Of a DNA stretch of 64,000 bases, positions 1-64,000 are shown in pieces. Position 1 is the first letter of the stretch. Each line of letters starts with the position of its first letter. Under the pieces are notes generated by a model. That model worked only from the letters and a program-made list of their open reading frames with translations. It made no database searches and had not been told where the DNA came from. This DNA is from Psammoneis japonica (Eukaryota), in the NCBI GenBank assembly GCA_008632985.1, contig QPGO01000181.1, positions 1 through 64,000 of the forward strand. The letters run 5' to 3'. Position numbers and translations under genes: made by a program.

Positions 1-520
1 AACTTGCCATGGCCCTGAAGCAGGTGACACTGCACCATTGAGCATGCCCTCTCTTAAGATGCGCTTGGCCTTGCTGTGTTCCCATTTCTCTTCTTCTTCT
101 TCATTTGGCATCATCATGTCTGTTGGTCAAGGAGAATTCAAATGAATGGCATTTGAGCATGATGATTCAAATGAGCAGCATTTGAGCACATTTGAGCACT
201 TTTGAGCACAGTTGGCGATGATTGAGCTTTGATCACAATTGGTGATGACATCAGCAGAAGTGGTGATGAGAAATAAACAAACCTTTTCATTTGAATTTTT
301 TTGTGAGAAAGTGGATGTTGCACATTTGATGCAGTCATGCAAGTGAGGGGTGGTTGTCATGCACAGTTTTTCACAGGCCATGCACGTGAGATTCAAATGG
401 ATTCTGGCACCGCAATGAGCATGTTGCCAGGTTTTTGTTGTCTTCTCGGCATGATGTCAATGGTCTCTGTGAGCAGCAGGTTGGCACACTTTCAGCATGA
501 GCAGTGTGGCCCAAGTGGGG

Positions 521-2400
521 TCATCTGATGCTTGCACAGGGACAGACCAGCACCATCTTCCCATTGGGGACATCTGGAGCTCTGATCTGGGACAAAGGGA
601 TGCGTGATCCCCTGAGGCAATGGTGAGTCACCCACACCACAGTGATGCTCATTCTTGCATCAACATGGCCGCATGCCTCTGAATGTGGCTTTTGCCACGT
701 TCTGCGCAGCACTGCCTCAGCTTGCTTGCCAAGCAGTCCATTGCATGAGATGCAATGAAGGGACAAGCAAAGTGGCGACATTGCTCAAGGCAGGGCTTGA
801 GGTGCTTGCACTTTTTCTCTCATTCGTGTTGTTCAAGAACTTCTTCTGGTGTCTTGGATGGGTGTGATTTTGCATCCGTGTCTGGAGCATGAATGTCCAT
901 GATGGTGTTCATCCTTCAATCCCAGAATTCTTTAGACAAAATGTCTCTGCAGTCGCCATCCTTTTGGACATGTTGGAGTCTGTGGTGCCTTGTGAGTTGT
1001 TGGAGGTGCACAGGCTTCCTGAGGTGCACAGAAAGGCTTGAAGGCCTTTCCAATTGGGTCACCAAGGTCATCATGCATGTCGTCGTGTCGTGAGATGACT
1101 GGACCACCCTTCTTGCACTGCAGGGCATGATTGATGGAGAATTTGCATCCGCGTCCATCACAGCACTCGGGGAGGATGGGGGGAGTGCTGCCACATCGCA
1201 GGTGAAATGTGTCACAAAATTCCAGACAAGAGATTTCCGTGCTGTTCAGTGTCAATGGGTGCACTGGTGGCCATGCTCCAGTGCTGGTGCTGCACTTGAT
1301 GGCTCTGGCCTTGAGGTTGGGTGGAGTCTGGAGGATCATCTTGAGTCTCTCCTCGTGCATCTTGGCTTTCCCATTGGCTGCTTTTTCTTTTGCTTTCCAC
1401 ACAGTGTCCTTGTGGACTGCTGAAGCAAAATCAGAGTTGCCATGAAGTGAGTCTGTCATGTGAGAGCAGGCAAAAGAGCACTTGCTTCACAGTTTTGGGA
1501 CACAGACTCCATTGGACGAGGGATGGACAGTCCTGCAAATTTGACTGGGAGGGCCGACAGAGCCAATCTTGGCAGATCATTGTCAGCCAAGGTCTCACCA
1601 AATGATGCTGGAAGAAAATGGTGCTGGATTGCACATGCTCTATTTCCAAAAAGGATTCTCCACAATCCTTTGCTGCATGTTTGACATGCTGCCACTGGTG
1701 CTGCAGGGACTTTTGAAGACCGGCAGAGGCAGTCTGCGGGTGGTGAATCACAACATTTGCAAGTCCTTGGATGACCAAGGTCTACAACTCGGCTTTCTCC
1801 ACCAGCCATTGGTCATGTGCATCCATCTCTCTGATGAAGCCTCTGAGGCAGCGGCCACCTGAGCAGATGGTGAAGCCGAGGTCTCTGAAGTGCGCCCCAG
1901 CGAGTTCCAGGTTGCGTTTTGGGACTGCTGGGATGTTCTTCTTGTTGTTGGCAGGGCAGCATCCATGCTTGGGGCCTTTGGCTTGAAGAATCAAGAAGAA
2001 TTCCTGGAGGATGTTGAATTTCTGGGCTGCGGCTGAGTCGTCAGTGCACCATGGCGTGAAAGCTTCCTGAAGGGTTTCATTCAGCTTGTGGACCAGTGGG
2101 AGAAGACCTTGTCCACAGGCCACCACACCAAGTGGGTCACCCTTTTTAACACTTTCCTTGCTGAACAGCATGAAGGCAGTGCTGAAGTGTCTGCAGATGA
2201 TTAGGATGCTCCAATGCTTGCAGCATTTGAAAGCAAACCTTGCGCCAGATGTCCAGAAGTGTCTGACATTGTGCAATGTTAGAACCCTGTTCTCCTCATT
2301 GAATCCATTAGAGGCATTGATGAAGAGGAAGCCGCAGTCATCCTTGAACTTGTGCTGTTCCCAGAGGAGATTCATTGTGTGAATCGCTCCCTCGATGCCT
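521..2400 (-). mobile_element. Decayed non-LTR retrotransposon, RLE (restriction-like endonuclease) type, CRE-like; RT through C-terminus
   Basis: Frameshifted ORFs 1782-2375, 1456-1809, 932-1459 and 521-781 give RT motifs INASNGFNEENR, GDPLGVVACG, PWCTDD (WYADD-type) and GPKHGCCP. These are followed by a CDGxGxxFxxxHALQCKKGG zinc knuckle, an RD-I-x-x-FW endonuclease start and a terminal CLRGSRIP. Confidence 0.85.
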
Positions 2401-2793
2401 GTTCACAAAGAATTAATTTATTGGTTGGGGAAACTGCCTAGAGTAGTTGTGCATTTGTCGGAATATCATGAATTCCATAGCGTCTGTCATGGCACGTTTC
2501 ACGCGTGATTACGGCGTTTTCCTGCTCAGTGTACCGTATGTACCGGTACTGTAGTGGCACCCACCCCCCAACCGAGGTGGGCCAGCTCGGAATCTTTGTT
2601 GCACTTTTTTCTGTCAAAACAAGGGCACAAAATGATTTCCACAAAAACACTACAAAATCCTCCAAATCGAGCCGCGGACAAGAAGAATCATCACCGTGAG
2701 ATAACACGAAATTCTGCATACCGCAGTACTGTAGACTCGGTGCCGGGCATACCGGTAGCGGTAATCGCATCTCATCATCTGTGCTCGCCAACA

Positions 2794-4588
2794 ATGACTA
2801 CAATGCAGCCGTCACCATCATTGCCGGCGTCGTCTCACGAAGGAGAGAATGGTGAAAACAACAGTGGTGAGACGACCCAATCATATGCGCAAGATCGCAA
2901 GCTATCCCCCCAAATTCTTCCTCACAAACCCTTGAATGGTGCTACAGTCCCACCAAATCAGGGGTACTCGTTGGACACAAATTCAATCCAACCTGAAGAT
3001 GCCACTGGGCTGCAAACTCAGTTTCAGTCTCTTGAATTAGATTCAGGAAATAGAGTTGCTGGCCCTGGCCGGAACGTTGCGGGTGTCGATGTCAATGAGG
3101 TTGACGATGAACCAAATAATGACTGTCCTGTGAAATTGTTCGTTGGACAGGTATGGGTATTACGAATTGGTTTCGTATGCGACGAAACAGTGCACTATCT
3201 TTACTCAATCTGGATTGCATTTGTCTGTTCCCGTGCTCTACAGGTGCCGAAGACCATGAACGAAGAAAACATCTTCCCCACTTTTGATTCTTTTGGCCCG
3301 CTGAAGGATATAGCTATTATCAGAGACAAGCATACAGGGCTTCATCGTGGCTGTGCATTTGTTACCTTTTGGTCTTCCACAGACGCCGAAGCTGCTCAGC
3401 AAGCGCTTCATGACAAGTTCACTTTTCCTGGAGGGAGGCGGCCAGCGCAGGTGAAGCCAGCGGAGCCTTCCGGTAAGAATGGCTTCAAATTTCAAATTCT
3501 ATGGAACTCCGAAGTAGGATGGTTCTAATGATTTTGCTTTTTTACTTAATTTAATTGATCAGTTCCAGAAAACAAGCTTTTCATTGGCATGCTTTCCCGA
3601 AAGGCTGGTGAGGCAGAAGTAAGAGAGCTGTTTGCGCCATTCGGGGAGATTCAAGAGATTTACATGATCCGAAATACTGATGGGTCGAGCAAGTGTGCTG
3701 CTTTTCTTCGATATGTCAAGCGTGAAGCTGCTCTTAAAGCTATCGAGAGTTTGCACGACAGTGTTTCGATGGACGGCTCCGCCCGTCCTCTCATAGTAAA
3801 ATTTGCTGACACGAAGCAGCAACGCCATGCCCGACATATGCGTAACACACGGCGAGAGCAGCTTCTGGCATCTATGGGTAGCGCTGGGCACGCATATCCC
3901 GGCTTTCAGGTGCGTTTGCATTAGTGAATTTTAAGAGACTGGTCTTATCCCACCTCCTCACCCAATCACCTTGTCATTGTCGTTAGCTACAGGTTCCTCA
4001 GGTCCCACCCCCCTTGGGCTTACCTCATGCGAGTCACTATTCCATTCCCCAGTACTCATCTGGGTATCACGGTACTGCTCACCCAGCTCCACCTGCTCAT
4101 CATCCTTATGTGTATGCTCCACACCACCAGTTTAGTCATGCTCCGGGTTATGGTTTTCCGAGCCAACAGGATTTGAGGGCCGCAAATCCACGTCCCAGGG
4201 AAGGTCCTGCGGGGGCGAATCTTTTTGTTTATCACTTACCGCATGATCTTACAGACAGCGATCTTGCCTCAGCATTCAATCCATTTGGGAATGTTGTAAG
4301 TGCAAAGGTATATGTAGACAAGTTCACTGGAGAAAGCAAAGGTTTTGGTACGTTCGTGCGGTAATCTTTGAGGTTGCATCGCGTTGTATGCTCTTTTGTT
4401 CTCAAAATTCTCACATTGAGCTCGCAGGCTTCGTGTCTTACGACTCTGTTATGTCTGCAGAGTCTGCGATTGAGAAGATGAATGGATTTCAGATTGGGAA
4501 CAAACGTTTGAAAGTTCAGCACAAGCGGGTGAACAGCACGGCAAGCGGAGTTCCGCACCAGCAATCACAAGGTGATGGTCAAGCATGA
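2794..4588 (+). CDS. CELF: CELF/Bruno-like RNA-binding protein with three RRMs, ~484 aa. Exons 2794-3150, 3244-3472, 3563-3909, 3987-4347, 4428-4588
   Basis: RRM1 KLFVGQ|VPK...[12 protein letters not shown]2 [10 protein letters not shown]...[12 protein letters not shown]3 [14 protein letters not shown]...SKGFG|FVSYD...[17 protein letters not shown]. Four GT-AG introns (77-93 nt) join in frame, total 1455 nt. The start could instead be the in-frame ATG at 2632, and the intron-3 acceptor is ambiguous (3987/3993/4002). Confidence 0.93.
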
Positions 4589-4709
4589 AACCTGGGCATA
4601 TTCTAAGCGGCGTGTTTAGAACTCTTCTAGTCACTCTTGTTGCAGTTGACCTGTGACTTCAGAATTCTACACCACTTTTGGACTTGTAACATAGCTGCTA
4701 GTTTAGATG

Positions 4710-7500
4710 GGCGTGTCATTGACAGCTGAGGTGCTTCCTCCATGCGACTGTTACTTGCACACCAGAAATGTCCAGCATGCCACGACAATTGGCAGGGTCC
4801 CGGCGACAGGTGACTCCAACTCCTCTCATTTCAAATTAACACGATGACAAACTCCAAAACTCTGCTCAAGTTCAAAAACTTTCTTGAAACTGTTCCCACA
4901 GGCGCTTCTTTTTCGCAATTTAAATGTTGAATTCAAGCCAGGAGCAGTGTTGCACTTCCTGATCACACCACAAGCATCTGACAGAGCATCAAGAAAACCT
5001 CAACATGTCCAAAGTTGTGCCCCTGTGTCTTTTTGCAACAATTGCTGATGTCACTTTGGGCCAATGAATGAAGGAGACAGTGCATTTTTGCACCCCTGAC
5101 TTCACATTTGGCGTGCTCTGCCTGTGATGTTGACCAAAAATGGCTGCCTGAATCTCAGCTGCTGTTGGTGAACAGTTTGTCAGCACACATTTTCTGTAAA
5201 GTTCTTCCGCTCTTTGGACAAAAGGGTGTGGACATTGACCAGCTTCTTGCAGTTGTTTTAGAATTTTGCTGCATTTGGGAACTTGCTTTGACATCTGCAA
5301 TTGGAGCAAAGTTTTGCCGCGATTGTGCCAAAAAAACAAATTGATGTCGACACATTGCAGCAGAGTGAAAAGAACAATTGAGGATTCCAATCTAAAAGGC
5401 ACATTGCGAACATTGGAACATGGTGTGGAGGGAGCACACAGGCACCACCACACCACACACAAAATGAGAAACTCAAAAATTGCAGAGAGAAAATGCAAGT
5501 GCAGAAATGAGGATTGGTCAGGCTGTCACAAGAACATGTTTGTGAAGAGTGCAAATTCTGCTGGTCACTGTGACCCAAGATTCCAGTGACCTGTGTCATC
5601 AGGATCAGGACAAAAAAACTTGAGAGACCTTTGGAAAAAAGACTTTGGGAGTCTCCACTGCTCACAATTTTTAACATGGTTGCTGCAATGCTGACAGCTG
5701 GAGTTTGCCTCAGATCCATTTTGTGTTGTCATGCCTCATCCTCTGATCATGCTCTGAACATTGTGGTGCATTTCCTCTGCGCTGCATGCAAAAGATGTGA
5801 GATGTGTTGAAAATGTTGTCAAGATCACCATCTGTGACCAATGCAGATAATTTCCTTCGCACTGGTGAGCTTGGAGCTCAGTTGATTGCAGCAGATGTTG
5901 TCAATTTTCAGGCAAGTGCTCATCTTGGAGGATGGCAACCCAGTTCTTGTGCTGCACAAGTGGATGTCTTGCATGGCCAGATTTTGTGTTGGTTTTTGCA
6001 TGTCCATGTGCGCACATCCTGGACCATCAGATGCCACAACCATCTTGTCACATGTGATGTGGCACCTGCCCTCACTCAAAGCAAGCGCAAGATGCTCCAC
6101 CCACTGGATGACCACCTGCACACAATGTGCCAGCACACACTCCACATTGATGCATGTGACACATTGAGCATGATTGGAGGAGTGTTCTTGAAAATTGTGT
6201 GCACTTGAAACCCCGCCATCATGTCCAGCTCTGATGGGAATGAAAACTGTTTTTTGTGCCCCCCTCATGTTGACACGGCAGTCTTGAACATTGTCTGCTA
6301 CATCCAGCCTGCTGCAAGTTGTGAAGCCATGTCTGCTGCTGCCAATGCTGTTTCTCATGCTCTTTCTGAACCACAAAAAGGGGATGGCATTTTTGGTGAC
6401 ATCAGACAAATCTGCTGGCTGACATTTCACCATGAGAACAGTCAGCAGGGCACCGCCATTGCTTTTCAGGTTTTCTGACTTCTGAATCTAGAATGCCATC
6501 TTTGTGACTGCATCTGCATTTTACACTGGCATCTCACCATTGCCCTTTGGCTGCTCAACAAATTGTTTGAAAAAAAAACAATGTCAACACCTTGTGATTC
6601 CAAAACATCTCAGCGGACAACCACACCCCAGTTTCCAACAAGCTTTCCATCAGGCAAATGGACCAGCTGTTTCAGCAGTGCAACAGCATCAGACATCTCT
6701 GGAACACTGTGATCATGCAAAAACAAGATTTCTGGACAGATGTTCTCCACATCAATGAGCTGTGATGTGCAAATGTTTGTGCAATGTTCGCTCATGCAAT
6801 GTCAGGCAAAGTGCAGTTTGCTGGCTCGTCTCCGTCAAACCACCAACCCATCTTAAGAAACTTGCCAATCCCCAAGGACAATCATGAATGTGGGTTGACC
6901 ATTGCTTTTGTGAGAGCTTGGGCCTGCTTGACAGGTTCTTGCACATTGCTGTCTTCAATGGCAGATTTGTGCAAGAGTGGCAAAGCCCATGTTGGGTTGG
7001 GGCCATCAGAGAATTTTGATTGCACTTTCACTCAAGTGCCACCAACTCATCTTGAAAGCATGTTCTGAGACATTTAGGAACTTGCTTGAAACAAATTGGT
7101 GACAGTTGTGCATCAATGGGCAAAGCTGTGGAAGCTTTTGCAAGCACATGAACAATCAGAATTTAGTGTGCATTGTCATTTTTGTCCAAAAAGAGCCTGA
7201 TGTTCTGCTCACATCTCTGGAGTTTTTCTGTTGCAGTCTTTCACAGTGCTTCTTGTCAATTGAAGCACCGCTGACTCCACTGCTTGTTTGCTGTCTTGGC
7301 ATTCAAGAAAGGATGTTGTCCAAAAAAAATGTCCATCATCACACTTCATTCTGGCAAACAATGAGTTTGTTTTTGCCTCACTCTCCACAAACAACTCAAC
7401 TGAAGACATCTGTGCATCCATTAGAAGGGACTGGCTGCAAGACTCAAATTTGGAAAGAAAAACATGGAAGGAGTGTTTCTCCATTGAAGGGACACACTAC
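4710..7500. repeat. Unclassified decayed repeat-like DNA
   Basis: Same TpA/CpG-depleted, TG/CA-rich composition as the recognisable transposons; no family motif recognised. Confidence 0.4.
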
Positions 7501-7509
7501 AGGCAATGA

Positions 7510-8538
7510 CAGAGAGAGCTGTCATGCACGGAGGGTCACAAGTGACTGCCCTGATTGGGGACAGACCACACCATCAGAATTCACATGCAGTGCATGCCAT
7601 GCACACACTCATCACACTGCACTGGGGGCAGGCCCCACTGGCCACCTGTGTGGCTCTTTCGTGACTGAGGCCACCAGCCCTTCAATGGCTCACCATGTTT
7701 GAAGCAACACTGCTGCCTTTTCATGCCTCCATTTGCCACAAACTCTCCCCTTTTGCATGTGCCATGAACTGTTCATTGCCCTTCACCATGTCCTCACCTG
7801 GACAATCACATCCACCAAACCACTGCACCATGACCTGGATGATCCCGCTCCACCATGCAAACACACATCCACCCCCTTCTGGAAACTGCTGCTCCTTTTT
7901 GTGGCACTTGTCATCCCTCCACCCTGCTGCTCCACCACCAACAACCCCAGCACAAAGCACCCATCTGCTTCCTCTGTCACCCCCACCTGCCTTGAGACAG
8001 CTGTTCTGACAAGGCCACATCCACAAGCTCTGCAATGCTGCACACACTGCCACCTCCCACCATGCCACCACTGCCCATCCACCCAACTTCTCTGCATTGA
8101 CCTGCTGCCACACAGCCCAGCTGTCTGCTGATGCTGACAACTTTGATGCTGCTTGCCACCGTGTAACTTCCAACCTCCCCATCACCACTGTTGATGACAC
8201 TCGACTCCCTCTAATTCATGCACCACTCTGACCACCCCGCACCCAGTGGCCACCACAAGCCACTGCTCTTCATGCATGGTGCTCTCCTCCCCCGTCCCTG
8301 CCCTGCATCTCTGATGATGAGCTCTCAGCAGCTCTCAGCAAGTGCAAACCTGGTGCTGCTGCTGGCCCATGTGCTTGCTCCACCAACCTCTTTAAAGCAT
8401 GTGCCCTCTTCTAAAACCACCACCCCAACCAAGACATGCCTTCACTGACACCTCTCCACCTTCAAGAACTTCATGGTCCTCCTCCTCCAAACTGAGTCTG
8501 TCCCACCAGAAATCCAACCCCTTGTCCCTGCCAACTGC
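7510..8538 (+). mobile_element. C-rich CRE-like non-LTR retrotransposon, 5' part (interrupted by the Plavaka-like element)
   Basis: Reads KPGAAAGP...FKNFMVLLLQTESVPPEIQPLVPANC and continues in frame after 18851 as FVALQKDPTNLNKLCPIG (ANYFVALxKD...KLRPIG-type RT N-terminal motif). Confidence 0.7.
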
Positions 8539-8551
8539 ATCAGAGGCCCGT
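8539..8551 (+). repeat. Left terminal inverted repeat of Plavaka-like element
   Basis: ATCAGAGGCCCGT, exact reverse complement of 18835-18847; one mismatch to 58153-58165. Confidence 0.85.
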
Positions 8552-9177
8552 AGAAAAGGCCTTGAGTTACAAGTCATTGAACCCCACCATCTCATGGCAT
8601 GCACGTGTGCGCCCAGATTGGTGGACCCCCCTCCAGATTAAAATCGACATTCACCCATTGGAATGACAACATTTTTGTTCATTTTCAATTTGTAGATTAG
8701 AACATCACACACATTCATTGTTCCACAACGCATTTTATTTAATTTACATTTGTTGACTTGAACACCAAAATGCCAAGTCACACGGCTCTGTCATTCCCTC
8801 AACTGAGGACAATTGCATTTCGCTCCAGCCGTAAAATGTTCATTTCATGTTGCCTGTGGCATTTTTGCCCAAATTTCTGCATTTCCGTCCTCATGATGAA
8901 TGTCGACAATTCCATGAAATTTTCCACCCTTTTCTGCTTTCCCTCCAAAACCCCCTCCTCTCCACCGAATCACAATCTTTCATTTGCACCATTCCCCCGG
9001 GCGATTGTGTTCAGGGCATTTGTCTCTTCTACTTGTGATCTACGGGTCCAATCCCCTGTGGTTTTGGTGAATCTGCGCAGAACCGCGAAAGCAGCATGAT
9101 GACAAGTCCGTGGTTTCTACATCCTCTGTTCATGCCGCGATCGCCCATGGCGGTTTGTCTCTCCCGCTGTTGCGACC

Positions 9178-14092: not shown

Positions 14093-14132
14093 GAAGATAT
14101 GATGATTTGGTGTCCAGCTCATCCAGGAACAT

Positions 14133-15032: not shown

Positions 15033-15333
15033 TTGTCACCCATGCTGGCAAAAGGTTGTGGTCCTTTTGTTTTCGTGGTGAGGATCACACCCATTGTTTG
15101 CATTTTTGCATGCCTTGTCCATTGAGTTGTCCATTGGGTTTTGTCAAGTGTTGGTCCGATTGTTGTCAGTCGGTGAAATGAAAAGAACACTGACGCACAA
15201 CCAATCTGGAAAGACAACTGACACACGACTGTCATGTGGTCGACAGACACCACCACTTCACAACAATCGCCGCAATCCGAATTTGAGAAGAAGACCATGT
15301 CAGAGGCGCACTCAACTGTTTCCTTGTGCGGAT

Positions 15334-17369: not shown

Positions 17370-17412
<43 letters not shown>

Positions 17413-47876: not shown

Positions 47877-47941
47877 TTGCATTTAGATTCTCTGACATGC
47901 TGGGCACCTTTAACACTGACAACAAGACTTCTGTTTGGTCT

Positions 47942-53156: not shown

Positions 53157-53218
53157 TGCCCAACCTGCAAAGCGCAAAAATGTGAACTTTTGCTTTCACT
53201 TCATCAGTGTGGTTGGCA
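53157..53218 (-). ncRNA. Second degenerate hammerhead-like motif, right pseudo-LTR
   Basis: Minus strand TGCCAACCACA-CTGATGA-AGTGAAAGC-AAAA(GAAA mutated)-...GCGCTT-T-GCAGGTTGGGCA. Confidence 0.5.
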
Positions 53219-53533
53219 TTTTTCTGGTGAGCTAAAAAAATTGAGATTGGCAATGTTTCAACTGCTGAGGTTGCAGCTGACCTCACTTGCCATTAAAAAA
53301 TGCTGACCTCACTTGCCATTAAAAAATAAACAGACCACCAGGAATGTGCCGGTGCATGCCATGCATGCACAGTCTTGGCCTCAAAACTCCAGTGGAGAAA
53401 GAAACGGGCATTGCATTCTCAGATGATGGTCTGAGCTGTGACAAAGACTGAGAGATGCAAACTGTTGCAGTGAGTTGATTGGGGCTCAGTGCAACCCTGA
53501 TTTTAAAAAAAACTCAAATGGATGCAACCTCAC

Positions 53534-54247
53534 CATGGATTGCACATGAGCTGCAACAGCCACGGAATGGGATCTTGATGAGTGCTTGGATTCCTTGGAC
53601 GATGACAACTTGTTCGGCAAGCATGCACCTTTTGACTCCTTTAGACATGTCACTCAAGTGGTCCAAGGCTCTTTCACTGAGTCTGAGCTGGAGGCATTGC
53701 ATCAGGTTGTCAAATGAACGATGGAAGCCACGACACAATTGCCAAAGTCTTGCTTCCACGCACCCCTTCAGCAACACTGCAAAGCATGGTGTCCCCAATT
53801 GAATCCAGTGTGCCTTGAGGAAATGGTGGCAACTGACACTTTCTTTGCCAGCATCAAGAGTCTCTCTGGATGCACTTGTGGACAAGTTTGTTGGGGCATC
53901 TCATCACACATGATCAACTTTTACCCAATGAAAACTGAGCCCGAGTTCCCATCTGCATGTCAGGCCTTCACATGTGAGAAAGGCGCTCTGCGGATCCCAC
54001 ATTGCAACAATGCCAAGGTGCAGAGATCCAAGGTTGTCATGAACCTGAATGGCAAGTTCATCATTGGCAACCAGTTCACTAAACTGCATTGTCCACAGCA
54101 GAATCCCACAGAGCTGTGCACTGTCAAGTGCCTGAAAAGACACACTCCCAAACTGTCATGGACAGGACCAATGCTCCAAGCATCATGTGGCCCGAATTGC
54201 ATTTAGATTCTCTAATGTGCTGGGCACCTTTGGCACTGACAACAAGA
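53534..54247 (+). repeat. Direct duplicate of 47189-47928 (copia integrase segment plus first ~50 bp of the pseudo-LTR)
   Basis: Runs from CATGGATTGCACATGAGCTGCAACAG to CACTGACAACAAGAC at both sites, with high visible identity. Confidence 0.9.
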
Positions 54248-56039
54248 CAGGAGTGTCCAAAAAGTGTCCACATCTTGGTTGTAATTTGAGCTGTGAACTG
54301 CACAGGACAACAATTTTGGATGCCCAAACTCAAGGTTGGGGGAACAAAAACACATTGAAGTGCACACATGGAATCACAGGCAATTTTTGCTGCTGACGGA
54401 TTGAGCAATTTTGAGAGCTTGTCTGGACTTCGACTGGACTACAAGGTCAAATGTGTGGTTGCTCTGTGCAACATGGTTGACCTTTCTTGCCTGCAAAGTC
54501 TCTTTGCTGCAAAGAAATCAAGGAATGTTGTTTTTTCTGTGCAGCCTCAATGTTCGCAACATGACAACACCACGATGCTCCACCCCACCAAGCACACCTC
54601 AACTTTTTGCATCACAAATTGCTTGCCCACACATGCAGTGGGTGCAGTTTCTTGCACATCATCACCAGCTGCTTTTTTGGCATTATCCTGGTGTGCCTCC
54701 ATTGCTTGTGAGAGGGCCAACCCCTCATCCAACAAGCAAGTTGCTCTCCTTCACAGCCTTGTCATGTTGTGGTGCAGGTTGATCTTTTCTCCAACAACAG
54801 TGCATGAATTCTAGCAGAGGGGTCAGTCAGATGTGGCTTGGATTTGTGCACAGGTCTTTAAGAGAACAGCAGCACTGCGCAAACTTCATGGGGAGTGTGT
54901 GCACAAGATGTTAAGACTGGGTCAAGCTACACGGCAAGGGCAAGGATGCTGCGACAGGAGGAGTCACAGCTCCAGGTCCTTTTTTGCTCACTTTGTCAGA
55001 GCTGCGGTGAATGGCAGCACAATGGTTTTGACACAGCATGAAGAGAGAATGAAGCCTTGCCTGTGACCATTCATTGTTGTCCAGAACTGCTCAGGTGTCA
55101 GCAACAGAAAGAGTGCTGGGTTCTGCGCATGTGTGTGTGGCACCACACCAACTGGAAAAATCATGAATCATTGCAAAGAATTGCTGTAGTTGAACCAGCA
55201 TCACACTTGTGAATTCTTTTGTTTTTGACATGTGCAGTGGGTGTTGAACAGTGCAGTCATGCTCATTCAAGACAAAACAGCATGGGGATGCCCTCCCAGC
55301 ACTGGTTGACTGTGTGGACCCATTGCCATGGCACCTGGATGGCATCCAGTTTTCTGCCATTTACCCAAGGTGTGTCTCACACCCCAATTTGGCCCTGGCT
55401 CAGGCACTGCTTGTTTGTGTCTTGCATCGCAGGAGACATGGCAGCAGAACTGGCTCAAGCTTCAGCATTGGTCAGTGGTGCATGGCAGATGTGTGGCACA
55501 TTGGTGACATCAATGCAGGGGCTTGTTTAGTGTTCCATGCTGGATTTGCAATTCTGGCAAATGTTTCAGTTGTAAAAAGCAACTTGGATGTTGAAGAAAT
55601 GGCCAACAGAACAGGGCAGTGCATGGCAGCAGATAGAAGGGTTGTTCTTGGTGGCACCTGGTGCCACCCAGATTAAGAACTTGCAGCCACTTGCATGGCA
55701 GCTGCATGGTTGTCAGAAGCACAATTTGCTGTCAGAAACAGCAGCATTCCCTCAGGCTGTGATGGACATGGCATGAGAGAGGAAGCACACAGAAAAGAAC
55801 AGGGTTGAATTGGATGTGGCAGTCAGTGGCATGCCAGCATTCAAGGCTGAGGATCATGATGTGTGATGGAAGATGCATTCTTGGGTCTCTTGGCACAGAA
55901 GATTGGCATGCCCAAGGTGCATTTCTGATGCACAGTTGGACCAACAGCAGTTCTGGCAGCATTTGCAGATGCCAAAGAGGAAAGGATGCATGAATTGAGT
56001 GTGAACAGAGAGGCTTGTGATGCTGACAATCACACTTTT

Positions 56040-58152
56040 GTTGTCTGTTGAAAGAGTGCTTGGTCAACATGGAATGATGGACTTGGATTGAAAGTTGTGA
56101 CAACATGGAGAACAGGAGAGATGCACTCTGAGCTTGGGTCAATCATCACAATGGCCAGGGCAAGCTGAGCAAGCATGTGCAACTCGTGTTGGCAAACATC
56201 AGGATGTCACATCATGAGAATGAACACAACACTTGTCATTTGAGCAGTGATGAGGATGAGCATGAGACAGAATGGCAGAAAGTGGAAATCCTGCCAAATG
56301 GGATCAAGATGGATGATGTCTAACTCTGCAGGCTTGTGCACCCATCATCAGTTGGCAGCGTCCCTGCAACTTTGCCAACTCTTGTGCATTCTTCTTTGCA
56401 GAAGTTTCCCATTTGCATGGACCAGCTCAGTTGGAGCAACAGCATCACTCAGAGTGCAAGATCTCAGAAGCACATTGCATTGGTGGACCAGGCAGAGGTT
56501 TTGCCAGAGGTGATGGCTACAATCCTCAAGGTGGCGGAGGCCATTGAAGGGGCCATCATGGCAGTCATCAAGAATGGAATCAAAGATGTGGTGCTGTGAT
56601 CAACAGCACAGATGTCAGCAACCCAACTCATGCATTTTCTGAAGATGAGTGGCACAGGTTAAATTTCAGTGGTGGCCAAGCTTGTGTCATGCAAGCTTGG
56701 GAGGGTGTGAACACACACAGCCAAGGAAATGGTCATGGCATGCCCAACCAGCATGGCAATCAAGGAAGTCCCGGTGGTCAGCAGGTGGCAGCTGCATCCC
56801 AGACTGTCAGTGACACAGTGGACCAAAAACAGCTGGTGACATGCAGCAGTGACAGTGGACGCGGCAGAGGACTTTGTGCACATTTTGGCACTGTTGATGT
56901 CATTGTTGCTGCTGCCATCTCAACCCCACTCACACAACAATTAAGTGAAAAGTCACAAGGTCTCTCAACATGATGCATGTCTCGAGTGACATGGCACCAG
57001 GTCATGTGTCCCAAAACACATGGCACTTGTTGTGCAGGAGCAAATTGGAAGCTTGTGGAGCCAATGAGTGAAGCATGTGAAGCAAGTCTGTTTCTTGAAT
57101 TGCATGGTCATGTTAAAGAAATTCCAGTTGTGCGACACTGTGCAGTGTGGACAGACCCAAATGCTGCAAGTGAACACTTGCTGGTTGGTGATCAGAGGTT
57201 GTGGTTTGGACAATGAATGGCACATTCCCTTGCCAACCTGAGTCAGTTGCGAGTGCACAATGTCCCATTCAATGATGACCCTCACAATTCTCAAGACAAG
57301 TTTGGCATTTCCATGGATGAAGGATGAAGTGTTTGTCCTTTCTTTTGTTGGTGTCTTTCAAATCTCATGCACCCACCAAATGGGAAGAGAAGAACTTGCT
57401 GGTGATTGTGCTTGCAAGTGACACTTAGAATCCATCAGAGGTTGATGTGGGTTTTCCAAACAAGACTCATGAGCAGCAGGAGATGTGTGCCATTCAATCA
57501 TTGACATTGCACATGCAAAAGTTGGAGGCATCAGAAATGCAGTCCAAAAGAGTAAAGTCAATGGCACTCAAATGGGGTGAAGTCAAAGAGACCATGGCAA
57601 GCATGTCACCAGTTCATCATTTCCAAACCTTTTGTAACTGCATGATCGCATTTGTGACATTTGTGTGCACTTGCAGGGAAGATGTGGATGTGCACAAAAG
57701 ACAGACATTGGAGCTCTGGTCTGAGGACAGGCACTCCAAGATGACAGCTGATGAGTTGGCAATGAAATGCAGTGTTGGACTGGAAATGGCAAAGGACACA
57801 ATGTCACAACTCAACAAGGTGTGCAAACAGCAACTCAACCACTGTCAAGATGAGTGGGAATGGATTGTCTGAATTTGCACAGAAAAAGACCAAAGGGGAT
57901 GTGGTTTGTAGATGCCCTCTTTTCAAAAGTTAAGTCTGCACTCTTGGTGACACTTGTGTGAATGCGCATGTGCTCAAGGCAAGTTTGTCAAGGTCATCCT
58001 GATGATGGCCAGGTCAGAAGCTGGGAGATTGTTGGCAGAGTTCATGGACAATGCAGGAGCACCAGAAATCTTGTTGACAGATGGAGCCAGAGAGTTCACT
58101 AGAAAAAGCATGGAATTTGTTGGGCATGCAAGGTGAGTGCATGTGCAACTTC
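56040..58152 (+). mobile_element. Decayed Ty1/copia element, gag-protease-integrase, cut by Plavaka-like copy 2
   Basis: gag WTWIES; protease region THGTCCAGANW...LWFG...HSL; integrase RHSKMTADELA...AGRLLAEFMDNAGAPEILLTDGAREF. Confidence 0.75.
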
Positions 58153-61100
58153 ATCAGAGGCCTGTTTCCATGAATTGTCTTGTGGTCGGACCAACGGACA
58201 ATGTTGCAGACAGCATGTGTGAGTGTCTGCACACAAATTTATTTATGATGAATCATTGCCATTTAACACAAATCACACACCCATTTGCCACAAATGAGTG
58301 TGATTAAAAACAAACAAATGTCCATGTAAACCAATGAATGTCTGGAGACATCAACGAACAGTCATCAATCCCAACAAGTGAGCTGCAGTTCAATCAGTTT
58401 ACGATGCCAATCAAGTTGCTTTGTGGGATTTCACTTGGCATGTTGTTGCCAACTGGGTGACAACTGAATGCAGTGTTGGGATTTGTTTTCAATCCTCACA
58501 GTCAAAGTCAATTGGTTGACTTGCATGTTCAAACAATCGTTTCCATTCTCCCATCCATTCATTGCATGTTGCTGCCACTGATTTAATCTCAACCAAACCA
58601 CCACCAACTCCAGTTCATAGATTTTGGCACAGTTGACCTGGTGGTCATCTTCATCATCCAAGCCTTCTTGTGCTTCTTGTGCCCCCATTGATCTTGCTCA
58701 GTTGCAATGGCTCTGCAGAGCTCTTCCCACTGGCCGAGGCATCTGCTTGCAACATCTTGCTTGATCTCCATGACCATGTCAACAAAAAATTTGTTAGCCT
58801 TTGGCAACCACCCTTTGCTCTTCCTTGGTGTGTTGTGCTTCCTTAGTCCTGTGCCTCCATCTGTGTCTTTTGGCTTCCCCGCCGTGAAATGATTGAGCAT
58901 CCTGACAACCTTTCTCTTCTTGCTTGATGCATCCGCATCATTTTGGATGTCAACAAGCACTTTTGTTGCCTTGGTCAGAGCTGTGACTCATGCTGCAGTC
59001 TTTGGCTCATCTCTGATCTTCTTGACCATCGCATCCTGTTTTGTGATGGACTCTTCCCTTGTGTCCTTGAACTTCTGTTTCAGTTCTTGCACAGACACAC
59101 CTTCCTCCGATGGCTCTTGTGGATCTCTGGAGCAGCACAAACATGCTCTTGTCCTGGTTGTCCTTCTCCTCAGCTGTTGCGAGGTCTGGCATGATGGTCT
59201 CCCACAAGTCGTTGCTTCCCTCTTGGTCCATGGGGCCTCCATCATCAACCAAATCCATGTCGTAATCCAACATCAAAGTCCCATCCTTGTTGCTGCTCTT
59301 GCAGTTGGCATGCCATGCATCACAGTTGTTCTTGAGGAGCAGCATGTGGGCAAATGCCTTGGCGCATGCTGTGCTCATCCTCTTGTCCTTGGAAATGCAC
59401 TCTTTCCAGCATGTGTCTCCGACAATCAAATGCAGCATGCAGTCACAGAACACTGTCTGCAAAGCTGGGTTTTGTTGTTGCAGTGTGCACAAAGAGCTTC
59501 ACATGTTGCAGGGAAAGCAAGCAACAACACTGTCAGCAGTTTCAATGGCTGCTCTCATTGCACCCTCTGTTTGCACTCACTGTAGAACTTGTCTTGCTCT
59601 GCCTGGCATGCATTTGACCTCTTAATTGCTGGCCACTCCTGATGCATCTTTGTTTGTTTCATGGTTGGACACAGTGGGTGGTGCAGGTGTGTTTTTTGCT
59701 CTGGCTCAGGTGGTTCCTGCAGCATCTTGTTCGTCATCTTGGGGGTGCAATTGTGTTCATAATCTCTGCAGAGCATGTTCTCTCACCTTCGCCATGTCCT
59801 GCATGACCTTGGCATGATCCACCATCCATTCGGTTGAGCTCATCTGCCACTCCACAATGACCATTGTCCTCCACTGTTGCTGTGGTGATTTTTCTGGTGT
59901 GTGCTGAAGCACACTGAAGCAAAGTGATGGATGTGGTTGAGTCTTGCAGATGATGTGCATTTGACAGTTGTCTTTTTCCCTTCTGCATGTTTTTTTACTT
60001 GCCTGAAAAGGGTCTTTCCTGCACATTTTTTTATTTGGCTGTACATCTGCATTTGAATTTAAACAGATCCTCCCTCCAATTCAAAACTTTGCATCTTCAA
60101 TGTCTGAACATGTGTGTGCCATGATGTTCAATGTCTCTTTGTGGCCAACTCTCTAACAGCCATTGCCATCATGCCAGTCCAGTCTCATTCAAAAATCAGC
60201 TGAGTCTCCACTCAACAATGTGATTCAAAAATCAATCCAACACCTGCACGCCAATGAATGGTTGTGAACAAGCATCAAATTATTTCATCCTGCTTCCACA
60301 GCCTTCCATTTCCAATTGGACTCTTTGCTCAGCATGACTTTTTGCCACTGTCACTGCTGACCCCGGCAAAATGTAGCCTGTCCCAGTGTGTCTGCCACAA
60401 CTCAATTGAGCCAGTTGTCGCAAGCTGCCATTTTTGTTTTCCAAGAACAGCAAATTGCTTGTCTGTCATCCACAGCTGCTTCTGAGAAAGACAAATCAGC
60501 AAATCCCAGCACAGACTTCAACGGAGATGATGACTCACCCAGTTTTCCACCTTCAGAAGACCCAGAGCCCACACCCCCCTCCCAACAAAGAAGCAGAGGA
60601 GATGGAGGAGGAAGAGGAGGAGGACAAATGTGATGATGATTCCTCTTGCTGCAAAATGTTCCCTGGCACTCTTGCTGCTTCTTTGTCCTCTCCCCCGGAT
60701 GAGACATCTGAAGAATCTACCCTGCCCCTGGATCCACCCACCGCACCTCCCACCACTGCCAACTCAGATCTCTTGCACAAGGAGGCACCTGATCCACCAA
60801 CCTTTTCACTGGCGGAAGAAGCTTCGTTGGAGCTGATTGTGCTGTGTGACAATTCCAGCACTGCCCATCAATTTTACAGGCAGTTGCTTGCCCTGTCACG
60901 ATGATTTCACAAGAAGCGGAAATTTGATTGTTCCCAGTGTCTTGGGCAGGACTTGTTGGTGAAGAAATTCTGCAAGAAGGTTTTCCTGCCCCAGCCTGAC
61001 ACTTGCATTGTTGGTGGATGGGAAGTCACTTGCTTCCACCTGCAAGACATGTTGAGAGATTTGCTTGCCCACACTTGATGTTTGATGATGAGCACAATCT

Positions 61101-63274
61101 CAACATGAACAGGTCGTCATGCATGCACATTTCCACAAGTTTGTCCCTGTTGACGAGCATGATCTCAGCAAGATTGTGTCAAACAAATGGTGCTCCAACA
61201 CATGCGATGACCTCTCCCAGGACTTTGACTGTGAGAAAGACTTGCTCTTGCCAATTGGCTCATGCACTGATCAGACAGGGACTGATGCCTGTCAAATGCA
61301 TCCCCTTGAACCCTGTGCATTTTGCATTCTTCTTGCCAAGGCATGTGCGGGAGCGTGATTGTGCTTGGCATCACCTTGGGTTCATGCCAAGCACAGCAGA
61401 CAAGGGTGGGGTGAGTGGTGCACTTGATGAGAATGGGAATGTGAATGAAGATGATTCACAATGACAAGTGGGCGAGTCTTCTTCAAACATGCAGGCTTGC
61501 CATGACATGTTGTCTTTTCTCTTGGCCCTTCAGGATGGTAAACTTGGGCAGTGTTTGCCAGCTCATGTGCATCTTCCTTGTACAAGGGCCAATGTTTGGT
61601 GATCAGAAGTCACAAGACTTTGTCTGCGGATGGAAAGCAACCAATGGTGGCAGAGCCAGTTGAGTGCATTGCTTCTGCATGTGTTCCGTCAATGATGTTA
61701 CAAACACTTCCCATCCAACCAATGAGCTTGGACTTTCTTGTTCTCCTGTCAATGTGAAGATTGTGCCCCATCTTAACAAGCCAGCACTTGGATGCACCGG
61801 CTCCACTTTAGCAGTTAGCAAGGACAATCCATGGATGGCTGCCTCAAGAGACAACAGAAGCTTGTGCGGTGGCCCTTCTTTCCTGTTAACACACAATGCA
61901 CCCGCTGTGAAATGCATTTGATGGTGTCAATTTCAGAAACAATCCATGGGGTGTGTTTTCAGCAATGGCTGACAATCACCTTCATTCCTGGGAAGCGGGT
62001 GGTGTGGAGAACATCACACAAGTCTTGCACTTTGGACTTGCCAAGACAAAGAAGGAAAACTTTGAGATGGAGCTGAAAGCTGTCATTGGAAGCTGCAGGT
62101 CCATGGCCTTGGCACAATGCCCCAGAGTTTGCTTAAGTTTTGATCGCACAATTGCCAGGTTGCAGAATTTGACCCGATTTGTGTTCTTGCAGGAACACTT
62201 GAAGGTGGAGTGGAGCTCACGTTCCACCAACTCTTGGCATTTTTGTGCCACACCTTTCTCCAAGGCACACAAGTGTCGATGCAAGCCTTGACACATTCCA
62301 GATGTTCAGCAAGGATCTTCTTGGTAACCTTCCCATCCTTCAACTTCTGCTGCATGTTCATCAGGGTCAAAACATTGTCACAAAACAGCACAAACTGCTT
62401 CCTCTTTTTGCAGCCAGAAAAAACAATGGTGGACCAGTGGCAAAAATTACCATGCTCTTTATGGACGTGAGGCAGAAAGCAACAGTCCGTTGTGGCAGCA
62501 GCGATGCTCAGGCATTGTGCAAAAAAAATCCAACTTGGATGTGAAGCTGGTGATCTGCAGGAAGCAAGGGTCCTTGCCAAGTCAATCATGCACTGTCATC
62601 TTGCACAAATCATTGATGATTGCACAGAGATTTTTGCCAAATTGGAAAAGATGTGAAGCTGGTGATCTGCAGGAAGCAAGGGTCCTTGCCAAGTCAATCA
62701 TGCACTGTCATCTTGCATAAATCATTGATGATTGCACAGAGATTTTTGCCAAATTGGAAAAGATTGGAAAAGGATTCGGCCAGCTTGCGGTGCTCTAGAA
62801 CACACCTCCCATCTCAATGGTGAAAACACAACCAGCAACAACTTTTTGAATGATGAAAGCAATCTTTGTACCCAAGAGAATGGGTGACTGTGTCATCAAC
62901 CATCAACACTTCCATGAAGAAAATGGGAGGCTTGATTCTGGTGGTTGTAACAAACAAAGGGGAGAGCAATGAGATCAGCAGAGGGAGTCCACACTCGGAA
63001 GTCTCAAGAAAGTGCTGATGGTGTAGCTGTGTCTCAATGATTTTTTTTTTAAATTGAGCCTTGGTCTTACAGGCGCTGCCAACACCATCAGTGCACACTT
63101 CAGCTTGGTTGTCAAGCACAGAACCATCGCTTCCATCAAAAGAATCATCATCTGCATTGTTTTCGTCAGAAAAAGAAAGATCACTGGCATGACCATCAAG
63201 GTCTCTGGATGCATGCGGCATCCTGGCATGAGATTTGCTTTGGCTGGTCAAGTTGTTGCCATCGGAGTCGTCAT
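58153..63274 (+). mobile_element. Plavaka-like element copy 2, inverted, internally deleted, one TIR only
   Basis: Starts ATCAGAGGCCTGT; accessory ORF on - (59950-58589); transposase on + (60400-62130, including GDQKSQDFVCG and MADNHLHSWEAG); 62130-63274 is the reverse complement of ~9380-10390. Confidence 0.82.
62538..62761. repeat. Near-perfect tandem duplication, 2 x 112 bp
   Basis: GATGTGAAGCTGGTGATCTGC...CCAAATTGGAAAA twice; the only difference seen is C62606 vs T62718. Confidence 0.92.
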
Positions 63275-64000
63275 GACAGAATTTGAACAAGATTTTAGTT
63301 TATCACACATGATTATGTGTGCTCTTAGTTCCGCGCGTGTCACGAGATGTAGTTTGCTTTCGAGCCACACGGCTCACAAGAACAATGACAGTAGTGCCGA
63401 CATCACGACACCAGTCTTTCAGCTCCTGCAATGGTCTCTGCACGGAGACTCATCTGCCATTTAGACAGCAGCAAGGAGTTGTTGTTTTCTTCCACCCAGT
63501 CATCTTCATTTTCTGTCAGATTAACAGTCTTGCTCTTTATTGTCCATTGAGCGTTCATCATCGTCATCGAGAAATTTTCGACGATGCGCACCGTTGGCGG
63601 TGGAAGTACATGTCTACCTTCTTCACTGCTGGATGCTGGATTAAATCTACACATTTGGATTTATCCAACACCTCCCATCATTGCATGTGTTTGTTCAACG
63701 GACATTTGTTTGGTCAGGAATTCCCGAATTCTCAGAAATCTGAGATTCCGGATTCCCCGCAGCAGATTCTGCCCTGGTTGGCAGACAGACCAATCCATCT
63801 GCTCGTGCTCATGTGCGCACGACATGAGCCCTTGACTCTGGCCCTGCTTCGCACATGCCAAGTCCACCACCTTGCATCTGCACCGGATTGCTGGTCTTCT
63901 GCAGTCCTGCAAGGTCCACGAACATTGGGGCAAGGGCACAGTTCCCGCGTTTGTTCGTCCCTCCACAGTGCCAAATTTGGCCGGCCTGATCGGGTCATCC

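Follow-up and report, generated by a model that had tools for sequence, protein, structure and literature searches.

In the repeat DNA of the window (the whole 64,000-nt stretch analysed here, nuclear DNA from a diatom or close relative), CpG and TpA steps have been turned into TG and CA by transitions. The CpG part is the expected decay of methylated CpG, while the TpA part, an A:T→G:C change, is not expected. The TpA loss arises in each copy after the copies have separated, strikes either strand at random per site, ends at the end of the element and spares adjacent genes together with their non-coding DNA. Its rate appears to be ~2–2.5 times that of CpG loss within these repeats and about 30 times that of the reverse change, which suggests that repeats in silenced chromatin are the target of an active process working on double-stranded DNA. 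Taken whole, we give this reading, an active and repeat-confined loss of TpA, a probability of about 0.55. The pattern is limited to repeats, runs the opposite way to fungal RIP and is apparently undescribed; our literature search found no description of repeat-limited TpA loss of this kind.

Extent and borders of the depletion

Over the whole window, TA was found 777 times against 4269 expected (O/E 0.18), with O/E values of 0.37 for CG, 1.67 for TG and 1.68 for CA, and of 128 consecutive 500-bp windows, 108 had a TA O/E under 0.3. Repeat DNA makes up 84% of the window. The depleted compartment (54,000 bp) had 404 TA against 3595 expected (O/E 0.11) and 814 CG against 3141 (0.26), with 5998 TG against 3403 (1.76) and 5891 CA against 3318 (1.78). 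The corresponding O/E values in the normal compartment, 10,000 bp in two gene islands at ~2.5–5 kb and 23–30 kb (Table 1), were 0.56 for TA, 0.94 for CG, 1.17 for TG and 1.20 for CA. The missing TA (3191) and CG (2327) sum to 5518, and the excess of TG and CA (5168) equals 94% of this deficit; no other dinucleotide was shifted by more than 534. Ordinary CpG decay amounts to ~42% of the combined deficit and so contributes much of the TG/CA excess.

The compartments met at sharp borders (200-bp resolution) near 2400, 5000, 23000 and 30200, and these coincided with element ends; the 200-bp bin at 2200 had 3 TA and the one at 2400 had 12. Non-coding DNA within the islands was also normal (TA 0.53–0.84, CG 0.70–1.14), so the contrast is one of compartment and not of coding versus non-coding sequence. 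In the first island, the CDS had TA 0.58 and CG 0.84 and positions 3529–5000 had TA 0.53 and CG 0.70; its gene matched Pfam RRM_1 (E 7e−13 and 6e−6). The second island was covered by spliced contigs from run X2. Within the repeats, 34–42 kb is part of a high-copy family (summed k-mer depth up to 1443 vs ~33 for unique DNA); 44–46 kb is almost single copy (k-mer depth 37–63) yet depleted. The depths of TA and CG depletion were weakly correlated across 50 repeat windows (rho 0.37), and at 9–19 kb TA was already down to 0.05–0.21 while CG still stood at 0.38–0.73. Long ORFs in the repeats contained 0–1.4% Tyr, 2.2–7.1% Cys and 2.9–7.8% His, and the three genes 1.2–2.1%, 1.4–2.6% and 1.4–3.5%, respectively.

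The first-pass annotation had described TpA as nearly absent from repeats and normal in genes, which these values bear out; its hand count of 9 TA in positions 1–2400 was exact (149 expected, with 39 CG against 148 expected). Its view that CpG decay does not explain A:T→G:C change at TpA holds; the ~42% of the deficit described above is CpG decay.

Table 1. Positions of compartments, genes, retroelement copies and diagnostic codons in the window.
Feature	Position	Strand	Remarks
TpA/CpG-depleted repeat block	1..2402		right border coincides with the 5′ truncation of copy A
Retroelement copy A	524..2402	−	RT and Cys/His-rich C-terminal domain; 5′-truncated, heavily mutated
Cys codon TGC at consensus Tyr of WCTDD motif	2046..2048	−	copy A; motif 2037–2051, RT part
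Gene island 1, RRM-domain protein	2403..5000		exons 2509–3528, 4247–4585; dinucleotides normal
Depleted repeat block	5001..22000		contains repeat partners of 58–63 kb; Pfam transposon domain absent
Retroelement copy B	22442..23266	−	C-terminal domain only; 5′-truncated at ~23180
His codon CAT in copy B	22733..22735	−	copy A TGT (Cys) at 1193–1195; consensus Tyr, profile position 756
Gene island 2	23001..30200		two genes; dinucleotides normal (TA 0.47–0.84, CG 1.0–1.14)
Tyr codon TAT kept in copy B	23027..23029	−	copy A TGT at 1489–1491; profile position 658
LRR and response-regulator protein	23782–27270	+	Pfam
Aureochrome-type bZIP-LOV protein	27666–28958	−	Pfam; top matches diatom aureochromes, 49–75% identity
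Depleted repeat block	30201..63200		per kb TA 0.02–0.22, CG 0.00–0.40, TG+CA 1.56–2.03

Direction of the change

An RT-bearing retroelement is present in the window as two 5′-truncated copies. In searches with a profile of 19 long relatives, six ORF pieces of copy A matched (profile positions 356–971, E 2.6e−52 to 2e−3), as did copy B over positions 607–841 (E 1.9e−68); copy B had 3452 relatives by phmmer. Copy B (TA O/E 0.38, CG 0.72) is apparently younger and less mutated than copy A (TA 0.063, CG 0.278). Of 16 positions where the family consensus is Tyr, the window encodes Cys at 8, His at 6, and Tyr and Ser at one each (copy A, 14 positions: 7 Cys, 6 His, 1 Ser), the consensus coming from relatives 30–47% identical, so that single positions may differ in the element's own ancestor. 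At the same positions, 131 library relatives have 372 Tyr, 80 Phe, 49 His and 11 Cys (n = 595; Fisher p = 4.5e−12 against the window), and 79 metagenomic relatives have 557 Tyr (68%), 129 Phe, 36 His and 8 Cys (n = 819). Nor are these relatives TpA-poor, so the pattern withstands the first of the refutations that the first-pass annotation had named: TA O/E of the 79 metagenomic loci was 0.34–0.97 (median 0.66), with CG mostly ~0.8–1.0.

Individual codons tell the same sites apart by copy. At profile position 475 (consensus y), copy A has TGC followed by ACT, giving the WCTDD motif, which we take to be the RT ‘YxDD’ catalytic motif. At position 658, the ancestral state (TAT, copy B) and the derived state (TGT, copy A) coexist, as judged from the aligned codons. 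At position 756, where relative P0121 carries Tyr (‘...LRLRY’), the CAT of copy B and the TGT of copy A read as separate hits on a single TAT, one on each strand. Since the copies differ at the same sites (A/B: TGT/TAT, TGT/CAT, TTG/TTA), each was hit separately.

Among 13 repeat pairs, TG↔CA made up 197 of 481 double mismatches, the next class having 14, although such alignments do not separate a CG from a TA ancestor at these sites; a simple two-state fit to the longest pair can attribute nearly all of them to CpG. Where one copy had TA, the partner had TG 31 times, CA 23 times and TA 20 times, and every other dinucleotide at most 8 times. One young pair (90% identical) has most TG/CA in common; some depleted DNA was therefore duplicated after mutation. 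In the second, high-copy family (34–44 kb), consensus TA became CA or TG in the window 6 times and the reverse occurred once among the best 40 of 578 differences, a smaller sample in which polarity means the window against the majority of other genomic copies. Of the 20 transitions among these best 40 of 578 differences, 14 fell at steps other than TpA, as did 8 of the 14 A:T→G:C changes.

On sequence comparison, then, the direction TA→TG/CA is demonstrated for one family, the RT retroelement, which supplies most of the polarised evidence (16 Tyr positions, two copies). The first-pass annotation had proposed this direction for every transposon class. All eight peptide motifs it quoted were present at the implied places, and both outcomes do occur on one coding strand. 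The direction carries over to the second family with the smaller sample above. Only the RT retroelement could be classified: Pfam searches of 270 ORF pieces and six read-through frames of the window gave no transposon domain, and the copia and Penelope labels, based on short motifs, were not confirmed, so that the extension to every class is not supported. Nor does the graded depletion between copies A and B support ‘hypermutation’ in the sense of a burst.

Known systems, mechanism and alternatives

As in RIP of ascomycete fungi, the changes are repeat-confined transitions in one dinucleotide context with sharp borders; they wreck transposon reading frames, produce a strong dinucleotide bias and hit copies independently. 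The direction is reversed, as previously claimed: RIP converts CpA/TpG to TpA, and here TpA becomes CpA/TpG. RIP is usually called at TpA/ApT >0.89 and (CpA+TpG)/(ApC+GpT) <1.03, whereas depleted DNA gave 0.12 and 1.94; GC content was unchanged (0.483 vs 0.482) without AT enrichment, and the host belongs to the stramenopiles and not to the fungi. Methyl-CpG decay in silenced transposons is present in the same compartment and resembles the TpA loss in its palindromic dinucleotide, its TG/CA products and its strand-symmetric, site-by-site action. However, it covers only the CpG part (2327 of 5518 missing dinucleotides), cytosine methylation gives no A:T→G:C change, and TpA loss is equally deep or deeper. 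Very-short-patch repair in Escherichia coli, which copes with 5mC deamination, likewise causes net T→C at a TA-containing word (CTAG), but it is bacterial, mild and bound to the Dcm context, while here nearly all TpA of a eukaryotic chromatin compartment is gone. Thymine is hydroxylated by enzymes in dinoflagellates (5hmU) and kinetoplastids (base J), reportedly with a preference for TpA and repeats, and this could be a source of T→C miscoding at TpA. We know of no TpA loss attributed to this modification, and the matches listed in the literature search (12 of 15), dinoflagellate work by title, included no diatom report of 5hmU.

The most likely mechanism, a conjecture to which we give somewhat less than even odds, is that an enzyme directed to silenced repeat chromatin modifies or deaminates a base of the palindromic TpA, and that the product miscodes. 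Adenine or N6-methyladenine might become hypoxanthine, read as G, or thymine might be oxidised to 5-hydroxymethyl- or 5-formyluracil, pairing with G; either would be an A:T counterpart of 5-methyl-CpG decay. To our knowledge, no eukaryotic enzyme is known to perform such a TpA conversion, and the 64,000-nt window held no candidate gene for one. Residual TA was uneven in context, from 0.00–0.04 for RTAY to 0.32 for TTAA, which may partly reflect new TA arising in A/T runs and not enzyme preference. New chemistry would not be required if a T:G-specific repair enzyme at methylated repeats always restored C:G, fixing T→C at TpA replication errors, a logic similar to that by which very-short-patch repair depletes CTAG in E. 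coli. Such biased repair fits the restriction of TpA loss to the compartment with methyl-CpG decay, the random strand per site (errors arise on either strand) and the accumulation of CA/TG without loss to TA (TA/(TG+CA) = 404/11889). Yet known eukaryotic T:G glycosylases favour T before G, which would rebuild CpG where its O/E is 0.26, we know of none with a TpA context, and TA and CG depletion are weakly correlated; we regard it as unlikely. Error-prone patch repair at deaminated 5mC, similar to what polymerase eta does during somatic hypermutation, is very improbable. The heavy CpG decay co-occurs, and polymerase eta errs most readily by A→G after T, but A:T pairs in hypermutation mutate at WA motifs and AA is untouched (O/E 1.17, 1.15 in genes). 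Patch repair would also depend on CpG events, yet TpA loss outpaces CpG loss (9–19 kb, copy B), and the transition-to-transversion ratio in repeat pairs is only ~0.65 outside the CG/TA/TG/CA system.

Strand symmetry bears on editing before integration, by ADAR-type A-to-I change of element RNA or by cDNA deamination, with copies born mutated. ADAR does make A→G changes in transposon copies, changes confined to the element; depletion here stops at element ends, copies bear different hits as if edited at each transposition, and the sole classified family is a retroelement. ADAR and APOBEC marks are, however, strand-specific and clustered. We counted 5802 TG and 5706 CA in 5888 runs (5750 expected, z +2.6): the outcome is random site by site with no strand-coordinated patches, which argues for double-stranded DNA events and against RNA or cDNA editing. 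Sense-RNA editing would give TA→TG only, yet Tyr→His is about as frequent as Tyr→Cys; ADAR also acts on A after A, and AA is spared. Depletion is moreover graded with apparent age (0.38 vs 0.06), and affects non-coding and almost single-copy DNA (44–46 kb). Strand symmetry thus largely rules editing out, leaving it a very small chance. Smaller still is the chance of an assembly, polishing or base-calling artefact in which a modified base at repeat TpA is called G: modified bases give systematic miscalls on some platforms, the platform used here is unrecorded, and the sequence is known from one sample. Against this, contigs from public run X1 (k-mer depth ~33), which may be the assembly's own data, of unrecorded library type, and so are not independent proof, matched eight stretches of the window, in both repeats and genes, with 0 differences (26001–30925, 31127–33174, 42761–46000 and five shorter). 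G called on both strands would leave a TG/CA mixture at each site and no clean contigs; between repeat copies there are also indels, 7–9% transversions and sites fixed for TG, CA or TA, and some library proteins show the same Tyr loss. Least probable is that the repeats were never TpA-rich, through inherited composition or selection against TA. Young duplicates do have some TG/CA in common, and residual TA (1–18 per kb) is close to the estimated need of Tyr codons alone, but for the classified family this reading is contradicted by the relatives' TA content and retained Tyr, by the 14 of 16 consensus Tyr that became Cys or His (WCTDD included) and by the TAT kept in copy B.

Dinucleotide composition and compartments

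Across the window, TA occurs 777 times against 4269 expected (observed/expected ratio, O/E, 0.18). CG is also low (0.37), TG (1.67) and CA (1.68) are in excess, and TA O/E lies below 0.3 in 108 of 128 windows of 500 bp. When the depleted DNA is pooled, TA falls to 404/3595 observed/expected (0.11) and CG to 814/3141 (0.26), with TG at 5998/3403 (1.76) and CA at 5891/3318 (1.78); the corresponding O/E values in the pooled normal DNA are 0.56, 0.94, 1.17 and 1.20. GC content is equal in the two (0.483 depleted, 0.482 normal). The deficits of TA (3191) and CG (2327) in repeat DNA sum to 5518, against a combined TG and CA surplus of 5168, no other dinucleotide departs from expectation by more than 534, and AA/TT O/E is as in genes.

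Repeat-like DNA makes up 54 of the 64 kb, that is, everything outside two gene islands (see table). The non-coding DNA of these islands is normal too (TA 0.53-0.84, CG 0.70-1.14), and near 2400, 5000, 23000 and 30200 a single 200-bp step holds the whole change of regime. The truncated retroelement ends coincide with compartment borders, and genes are spared together with their flanks. The first-pass annotation had proposed a TpA hypermutation that acts on repeats and spares genes. Its hand count of nine TA in positions 1-2400 is exact (149 expected), the TpA depletion of repeat DNA and the sparing of genes were both borne out, and the restriction of TpA loss to repeats is confirmed within the 64-kb window. 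A restriction to duplicated sequence, as in RIP, is less certain, since the 44-46 kb segment is near single copy today (k-mer depth 37-63 versus about 33) and is still depleted.

Features of the window discussed in the text
Feature	Position	Strand	Details
Retroelement copy A	524-2402	-	pieces align to profile positions 356-971
Retroelement copy B	22442-23266	-	aligns to profile positions 607-841
Gene island	~2.4-5.0 kb		normal dinucleotides
Gene island	23.0-30.2 kb		normal dinucleotides
RRM gene	2509-4585	+	two or more exons; RRM_1 in 2509-3528, another, partial one in 4247-4585
Leucine-rich repeat and response-regulator ORF	23782-27270	+	intron-less, 1162 aa; C-terminal receiver (Response_reg E 2e-19)
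Aureochrome-type bZIP-LOV protein	27666-28958	-	bZIP_2 E 3.5e-8 (residues 155-200), PAS_9 E 9e-18 (residues 254-353)
Aureochrome-type gene with 5' introns	27666-29651	-	two introns
Segments skipped by spliced contigs	28932-29007; 29256-29651	-	74 nt; 394 nt; CT..AC ends, i.e. GT..AG on -
Repeat block	9-19 kb		TA 0.05-0.21, CpG 0.38-0.73; ORFs of 482, 347 and 260 aa
Long simple repeat	16868-17680		run of ~40 Leu on +; Glu/Gln repeats on - (16661-17446)
Adjacent 192-bp units	39207-39398; 39400-39592		92% identical
Longest open frame in repeat DNA	51394-53070	-	559 aa

Direction of change in the retroelement and in other repeats

Copies A and B appear, from their alignment to relatives, to be two 5'-truncated copies of one reverse transcriptase (RT) retroelement. 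The copy B ORF has 3452 relatives by phmmer, with one match in a word-based protein search against longer proteins. A profile built from 19 long library relatives covers both copies and aligns positions 1785-2402 of copy A to the RT part of the relatives (E 2.6e-52). The Pfam RT family RVT_1 matches four of eight long relatives (1000-1190 aa) at 26.6-31.1 bits, one of them above the cut-off of 29.6; the window ORFs of the two copies have no RVT_1 or other Pfam match themselves.

At 16 positions where the profile consensus is Tyr, the window copies carry Cys 8 times, His 6 times, and Tyr and Ser once each. Among 131 library relatives outside the profile, the same positions hold Tyr 372, Phe 80, His 49 and Cys 11 times of 595 (Fisher p 4.5e-12, window versus relatives), and among 79 metagenomic loci of the family Tyr 557, Phe 129, His 36 and Cys 8 times of 819. 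The replacement codons at the former TAY sites are TGY and CAY; both outcomes proposed by the first-pass annotation do occur on one coding strand. Arg is kept at 17 of 48 consensus Arg positions, with Lys at 9 and Cys and His at 5 each, and many of the surviving Arg codons are AGR; the change of Arg to Cys or His is the CpG share of the changes. The motif WCTDD in the RT part of copy A is encoded there by TGC-ACT at a consensus Tyr, and would derive from ancestral TAC-GCT by one TA to TG and one CG to CA change.

The two copies differ at the same site (copy A/copy B): TGT/TAT, TGT/CAT, TTG/TTA, TGT/CGT, CAC/TGC and CAT/CGT. Because the codons at these shared sites differ, each copy must have been hit separately, with either strand affected. 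Elsewhere the family has no shortage of TpA: TA O/E is 0.34-0.97 (median 0.66) and CG O/E 0.46-1.25 in the 79 metagenomic loci, which were found with search patterns that favour intact copies. Tyr is below 0.8% in 14 of 150 library relatives (P0239, P0249, P0122, P0124 and P0130 among them), and P0239 keeps none of 10 consensus Tyr, with Cys or His at 7. Other public sequences thus carry the signature as well. The same process may be at work in other genomes, or these relatives may be further copies belonging to this species.

In thirteen repeat pairs within the window (6700 aligned columns), TG faces CA in 197 of 481 double mismatches, the runner-up class reaching 14. Where one copy keeps TA, its partner has TG 31, CA 23 and TA 20 times, with all others at most 8; opposite CG stand TG 76, CA 65 and CG 16 times. 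The pairs hold 897 transitions and 473 transversions, and outside the CG/TA/TG/CA system the transition/transversion ratio is about 0.65. These data show independent collapse of a palindromic ancestor, which by the pair data may be either CG or TA. In a young duplicate pair (90% identity) most TG/CA are common to both members, so depleted DNA has also been copied after mutation.

In the high-copy family at 34-44 kb, the window was compared with the variant carried by at least 83% of the depth of other genomic copies. The 40 best-supported of 578 differences comprise 20 transitions and 20 transversions, and among these 40 a consensus TA has become CA or TG in the window six times, with one change in reverse. 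The direction of change asserted by the first-pass annotation is therefore confirmed in one family, the retroelement, and supported by six changes to one in a second; the annotation had extended it to every transposon class. Long ORFs of several unrelated repeat blocks contain 0-1.4% Tyr, with Cys and His raised.

Known systems and possible mechanisms

An A:T to G:C transition process at TpA, acting beside CpG decay, is shown by these observations. The process is limited to repeat DNA, affects copies that have already integrated, is strand-symmetric and hits sites independently. TG and CA are nearly equal (5802 versus 5706), with 2-kb skews of -0.13 to +0.17, and their order along the DNA is random (5888 runs versus 5750 expected, z +2.6); the other complementary dinucleotide pairs are all clustered (z -9 to -29). 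Overdispersion is 1.1-1.4 at 150-300 bp. This patch-free order speaks against editing of RNA or cDNA and against a processive single-strand deaminase, and agrees with separate events, each at a palindromic step of duplex DNA. Processive action on one strand, considered on account of seven consecutive Tyr to Cys changes in copy A, was rejected by the same runs test.

Depletion is graded: TA and CG O/E are 0.38 and 0.72 in copy B, and 0.06 and 0.28 in copy A. A rough estimate, based on the 9-19 kb block and on how copy B compares with its relatives, is that TpA decays about 2-2.5 times faster than CpG. The ratio TA/(TG+CA) is 0.034 in repeat DNA; if this is near equilibrium, TpA loss would outpace the reverse transition by, again roughly, a factor of 30. 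Over 50 repeat windows the depletion of TA correlates only weakly with that of CG (rho 0.37, p 0.007). The residual TA has a context, R-TA-Y words being at O/E 0.00-0.04 and TTAA at 0.32, which may in part reflect new TA arising in A/T runs.

Two known systems come closest, fungal repeat-induced point mutation (RIP) and methyl-CpG decay. The logic of RIP, which in fungi is the work of a RID/DIM-2-type cytosine methyltransferase homologue before meiosis, is shared, but it runs in the opposite direction, making TpA from CpA/TpG, whereas here TA becomes TG or CA; the repeat DNA does not show its defining chemistry, C:G to T:A creating TpA, and lies at the far end from RIP on both RIP indices, 404/3429 = 0.12 for TpA/ApT and 11889/6136 = 1.94 for (CpA+TpG)/(ApC+GpT). 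Methyl-CpG decay is present in the silenced compartment (CG O/E 0.26 in repeats versus 0.94 in gene islands), with surviving CGT codons facing TGT or CAT in the other copy, but it does not account for the TpA deficit because C to T changes cannot remove TpA. ADAR-type RNA editing changes A to G on the transcribed strand only and in clusters, whereas here eight Tyr to Cys and six Tyr to His changes lie on one coding strand, and TG and CA follow each other without patches. In a full-text search of the literature outside subscription journals, nothing was found that describes a loss of TpA from the repeats of diatoms. Two diatom transposon papers (PMC2806351 and bioRxiv 10.1101/2025.10.24.684338) contain no mention of RIP, "hypermut", dinucleotide or deamination, nor, in the preprint, of TpA. 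In our judgement, no counterpart of this mutational signature has been described.

Loss that appears both targeted and fast calls for an enzyme or a modification and not for background mutation. The explanation we prefer, at a probability of about 40%, is that in silenced chromatin a miscoding modification or a deamination would act at the palindromic TpA step, as the A:T analogue of methyl-CpG decay. The candidate chemistries would be adenine or 6mA to hypoxanthine, and thymine to 5hmU/5fU. The 64-kb window itself encodes no candidate enzyme gene. Repair offers other readings: a bias at T:G mismatches of the very-short-patch type, which we consider unlikely, and patch repair of the polymerase-eta type, which the normal AA composition contradicts and to which we give very little weight. 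Editing before integration is very improbable, being contradicted by the strand symmetry, and a composition inherited by the elements is hardly tenable given their relatives.

There is also only a very slight chance that the signature is an artefact. The stretch was found in two public runs of one sample, X1 and X2. Contigs from X1 (k-mer depth about 33) match 26001-30925, 31127-33174, 42761-46000 and five shorter pieces with no differences; this is consistency and not independent proof, as X1 is possibly the assembly's own data and its record gives no library type. If polymerases took a modified base for G on both strands, each site would show TG and CA mixed, and clean contigs could not arise. 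To judge from a summed k-mer depth of up to 1443, some of the repeat DNA may be present in several tens of copies.

Beyond the modification or deamination that we prefer, we tentatively consider, as somewhat more likely wrong than right, that diatoms or this lineage possess a dedicated genome-defence mutator acting at TpA in double-stranded repeat DNA, a natural DNA adenine deaminase or thymine-oxidising enzyme targeted to repeat chromatin. If so, a counterpart of RIP would have evolved independently, its chemistry reversed (A:T to G:C), and it would erase Tyr codons and TAA/TAG stops rather than make stops. If the signature is real genome-wide, it would be a compartment-targeted A:T to G:C change at one dinucleotide, without described counterpart and no slower than methyl-CpG decay. 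It would then point to a DNA modification or an enzyme not known so far, in one of the major groups of marine primary producers, and to a second, independent case of repeat-directed mutagenesis beside fungal RIP. Base editing, too, could take an interest in a natural activity that turns A to G specifically at TpA in double-stranded DNA.

Consequences for annotation and further features

With Tyr and Arg codons rewritten, transposon proteins escape Pfam: not one of 270 ORF pieces (137 + 133) of repeat DNA yields a transposon domain. Matches to DUF2703, PEN-2, CNNM and PMEI in repeat ORFs are below cut-offs and were treated as chance. Six frames read through stops at 32.7-35.2 kb and 49.5-51.4 kb gave nothing above the Pfam cut-offs at E up to 0.1 and 1. 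The peptide motifs quoted in the first-pass annotation are present in the sequence, and those assigned to copia and Penelope are, we presume, plausible. For the labels Ty1/copia (33-35 kb) and Penelope (49.5-51.4 kb), RT, integrase and RNase H domains were not found, which Tyr/Arg loss may hide. A PDB sequence search with three ORFs gave nothing relevant, and a word-based protein search of 50668-51390 gave no matches.

Stops in repeat DNA are TAA 168, TAG 103 and TGA 1248. The erasure of TAA and TAG leaves many long open frames in dead repeats (395 frames of at least 75 aa in 64 kb), a hazard for gene callers, which could miscall them as genes. Reversing the signature in silico, as is done for RIP, could recover repeat families.

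The repeat block at 9-19 kb, strongly depleted in TA and moderately in CpG, has several long ORFs without a Pfam family, and may be a younger or less methylated element. The repeat block that contains the long simple repeat recurs at 59.8-61.7 kb. The 34-39 kb family has further internal repeats besides the adjacent 192-bp units, so the high-copy element contains tandem sub-repeats.

In the gene islands, the bZIP-LOV protein has the aureochrome order of a bZIP followed by a LOV-type PAS domain; its named best matches are diatom transcriptome records (49-75% identity), and the library contained no near-identical relative. By these matches the host is a diatom or closely related to one. Its 5' introns are backed by spliced contigs of X2, a run recorded as 'DNA?' that is RNA-like by these spliced joints. 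The X2 contigs cover 26.0-30.0 kb of the 20 kb compared, and no conclusion is drawn from their lack over 30-46 kb. The ORF combining leucine-rich repeats with a response-regulator receiver has a signalling architecture unusual in a eukaryote. Although a dead retroelement has its truncated end 107 bp away, the RRM gene bears no sign of the mutation process.
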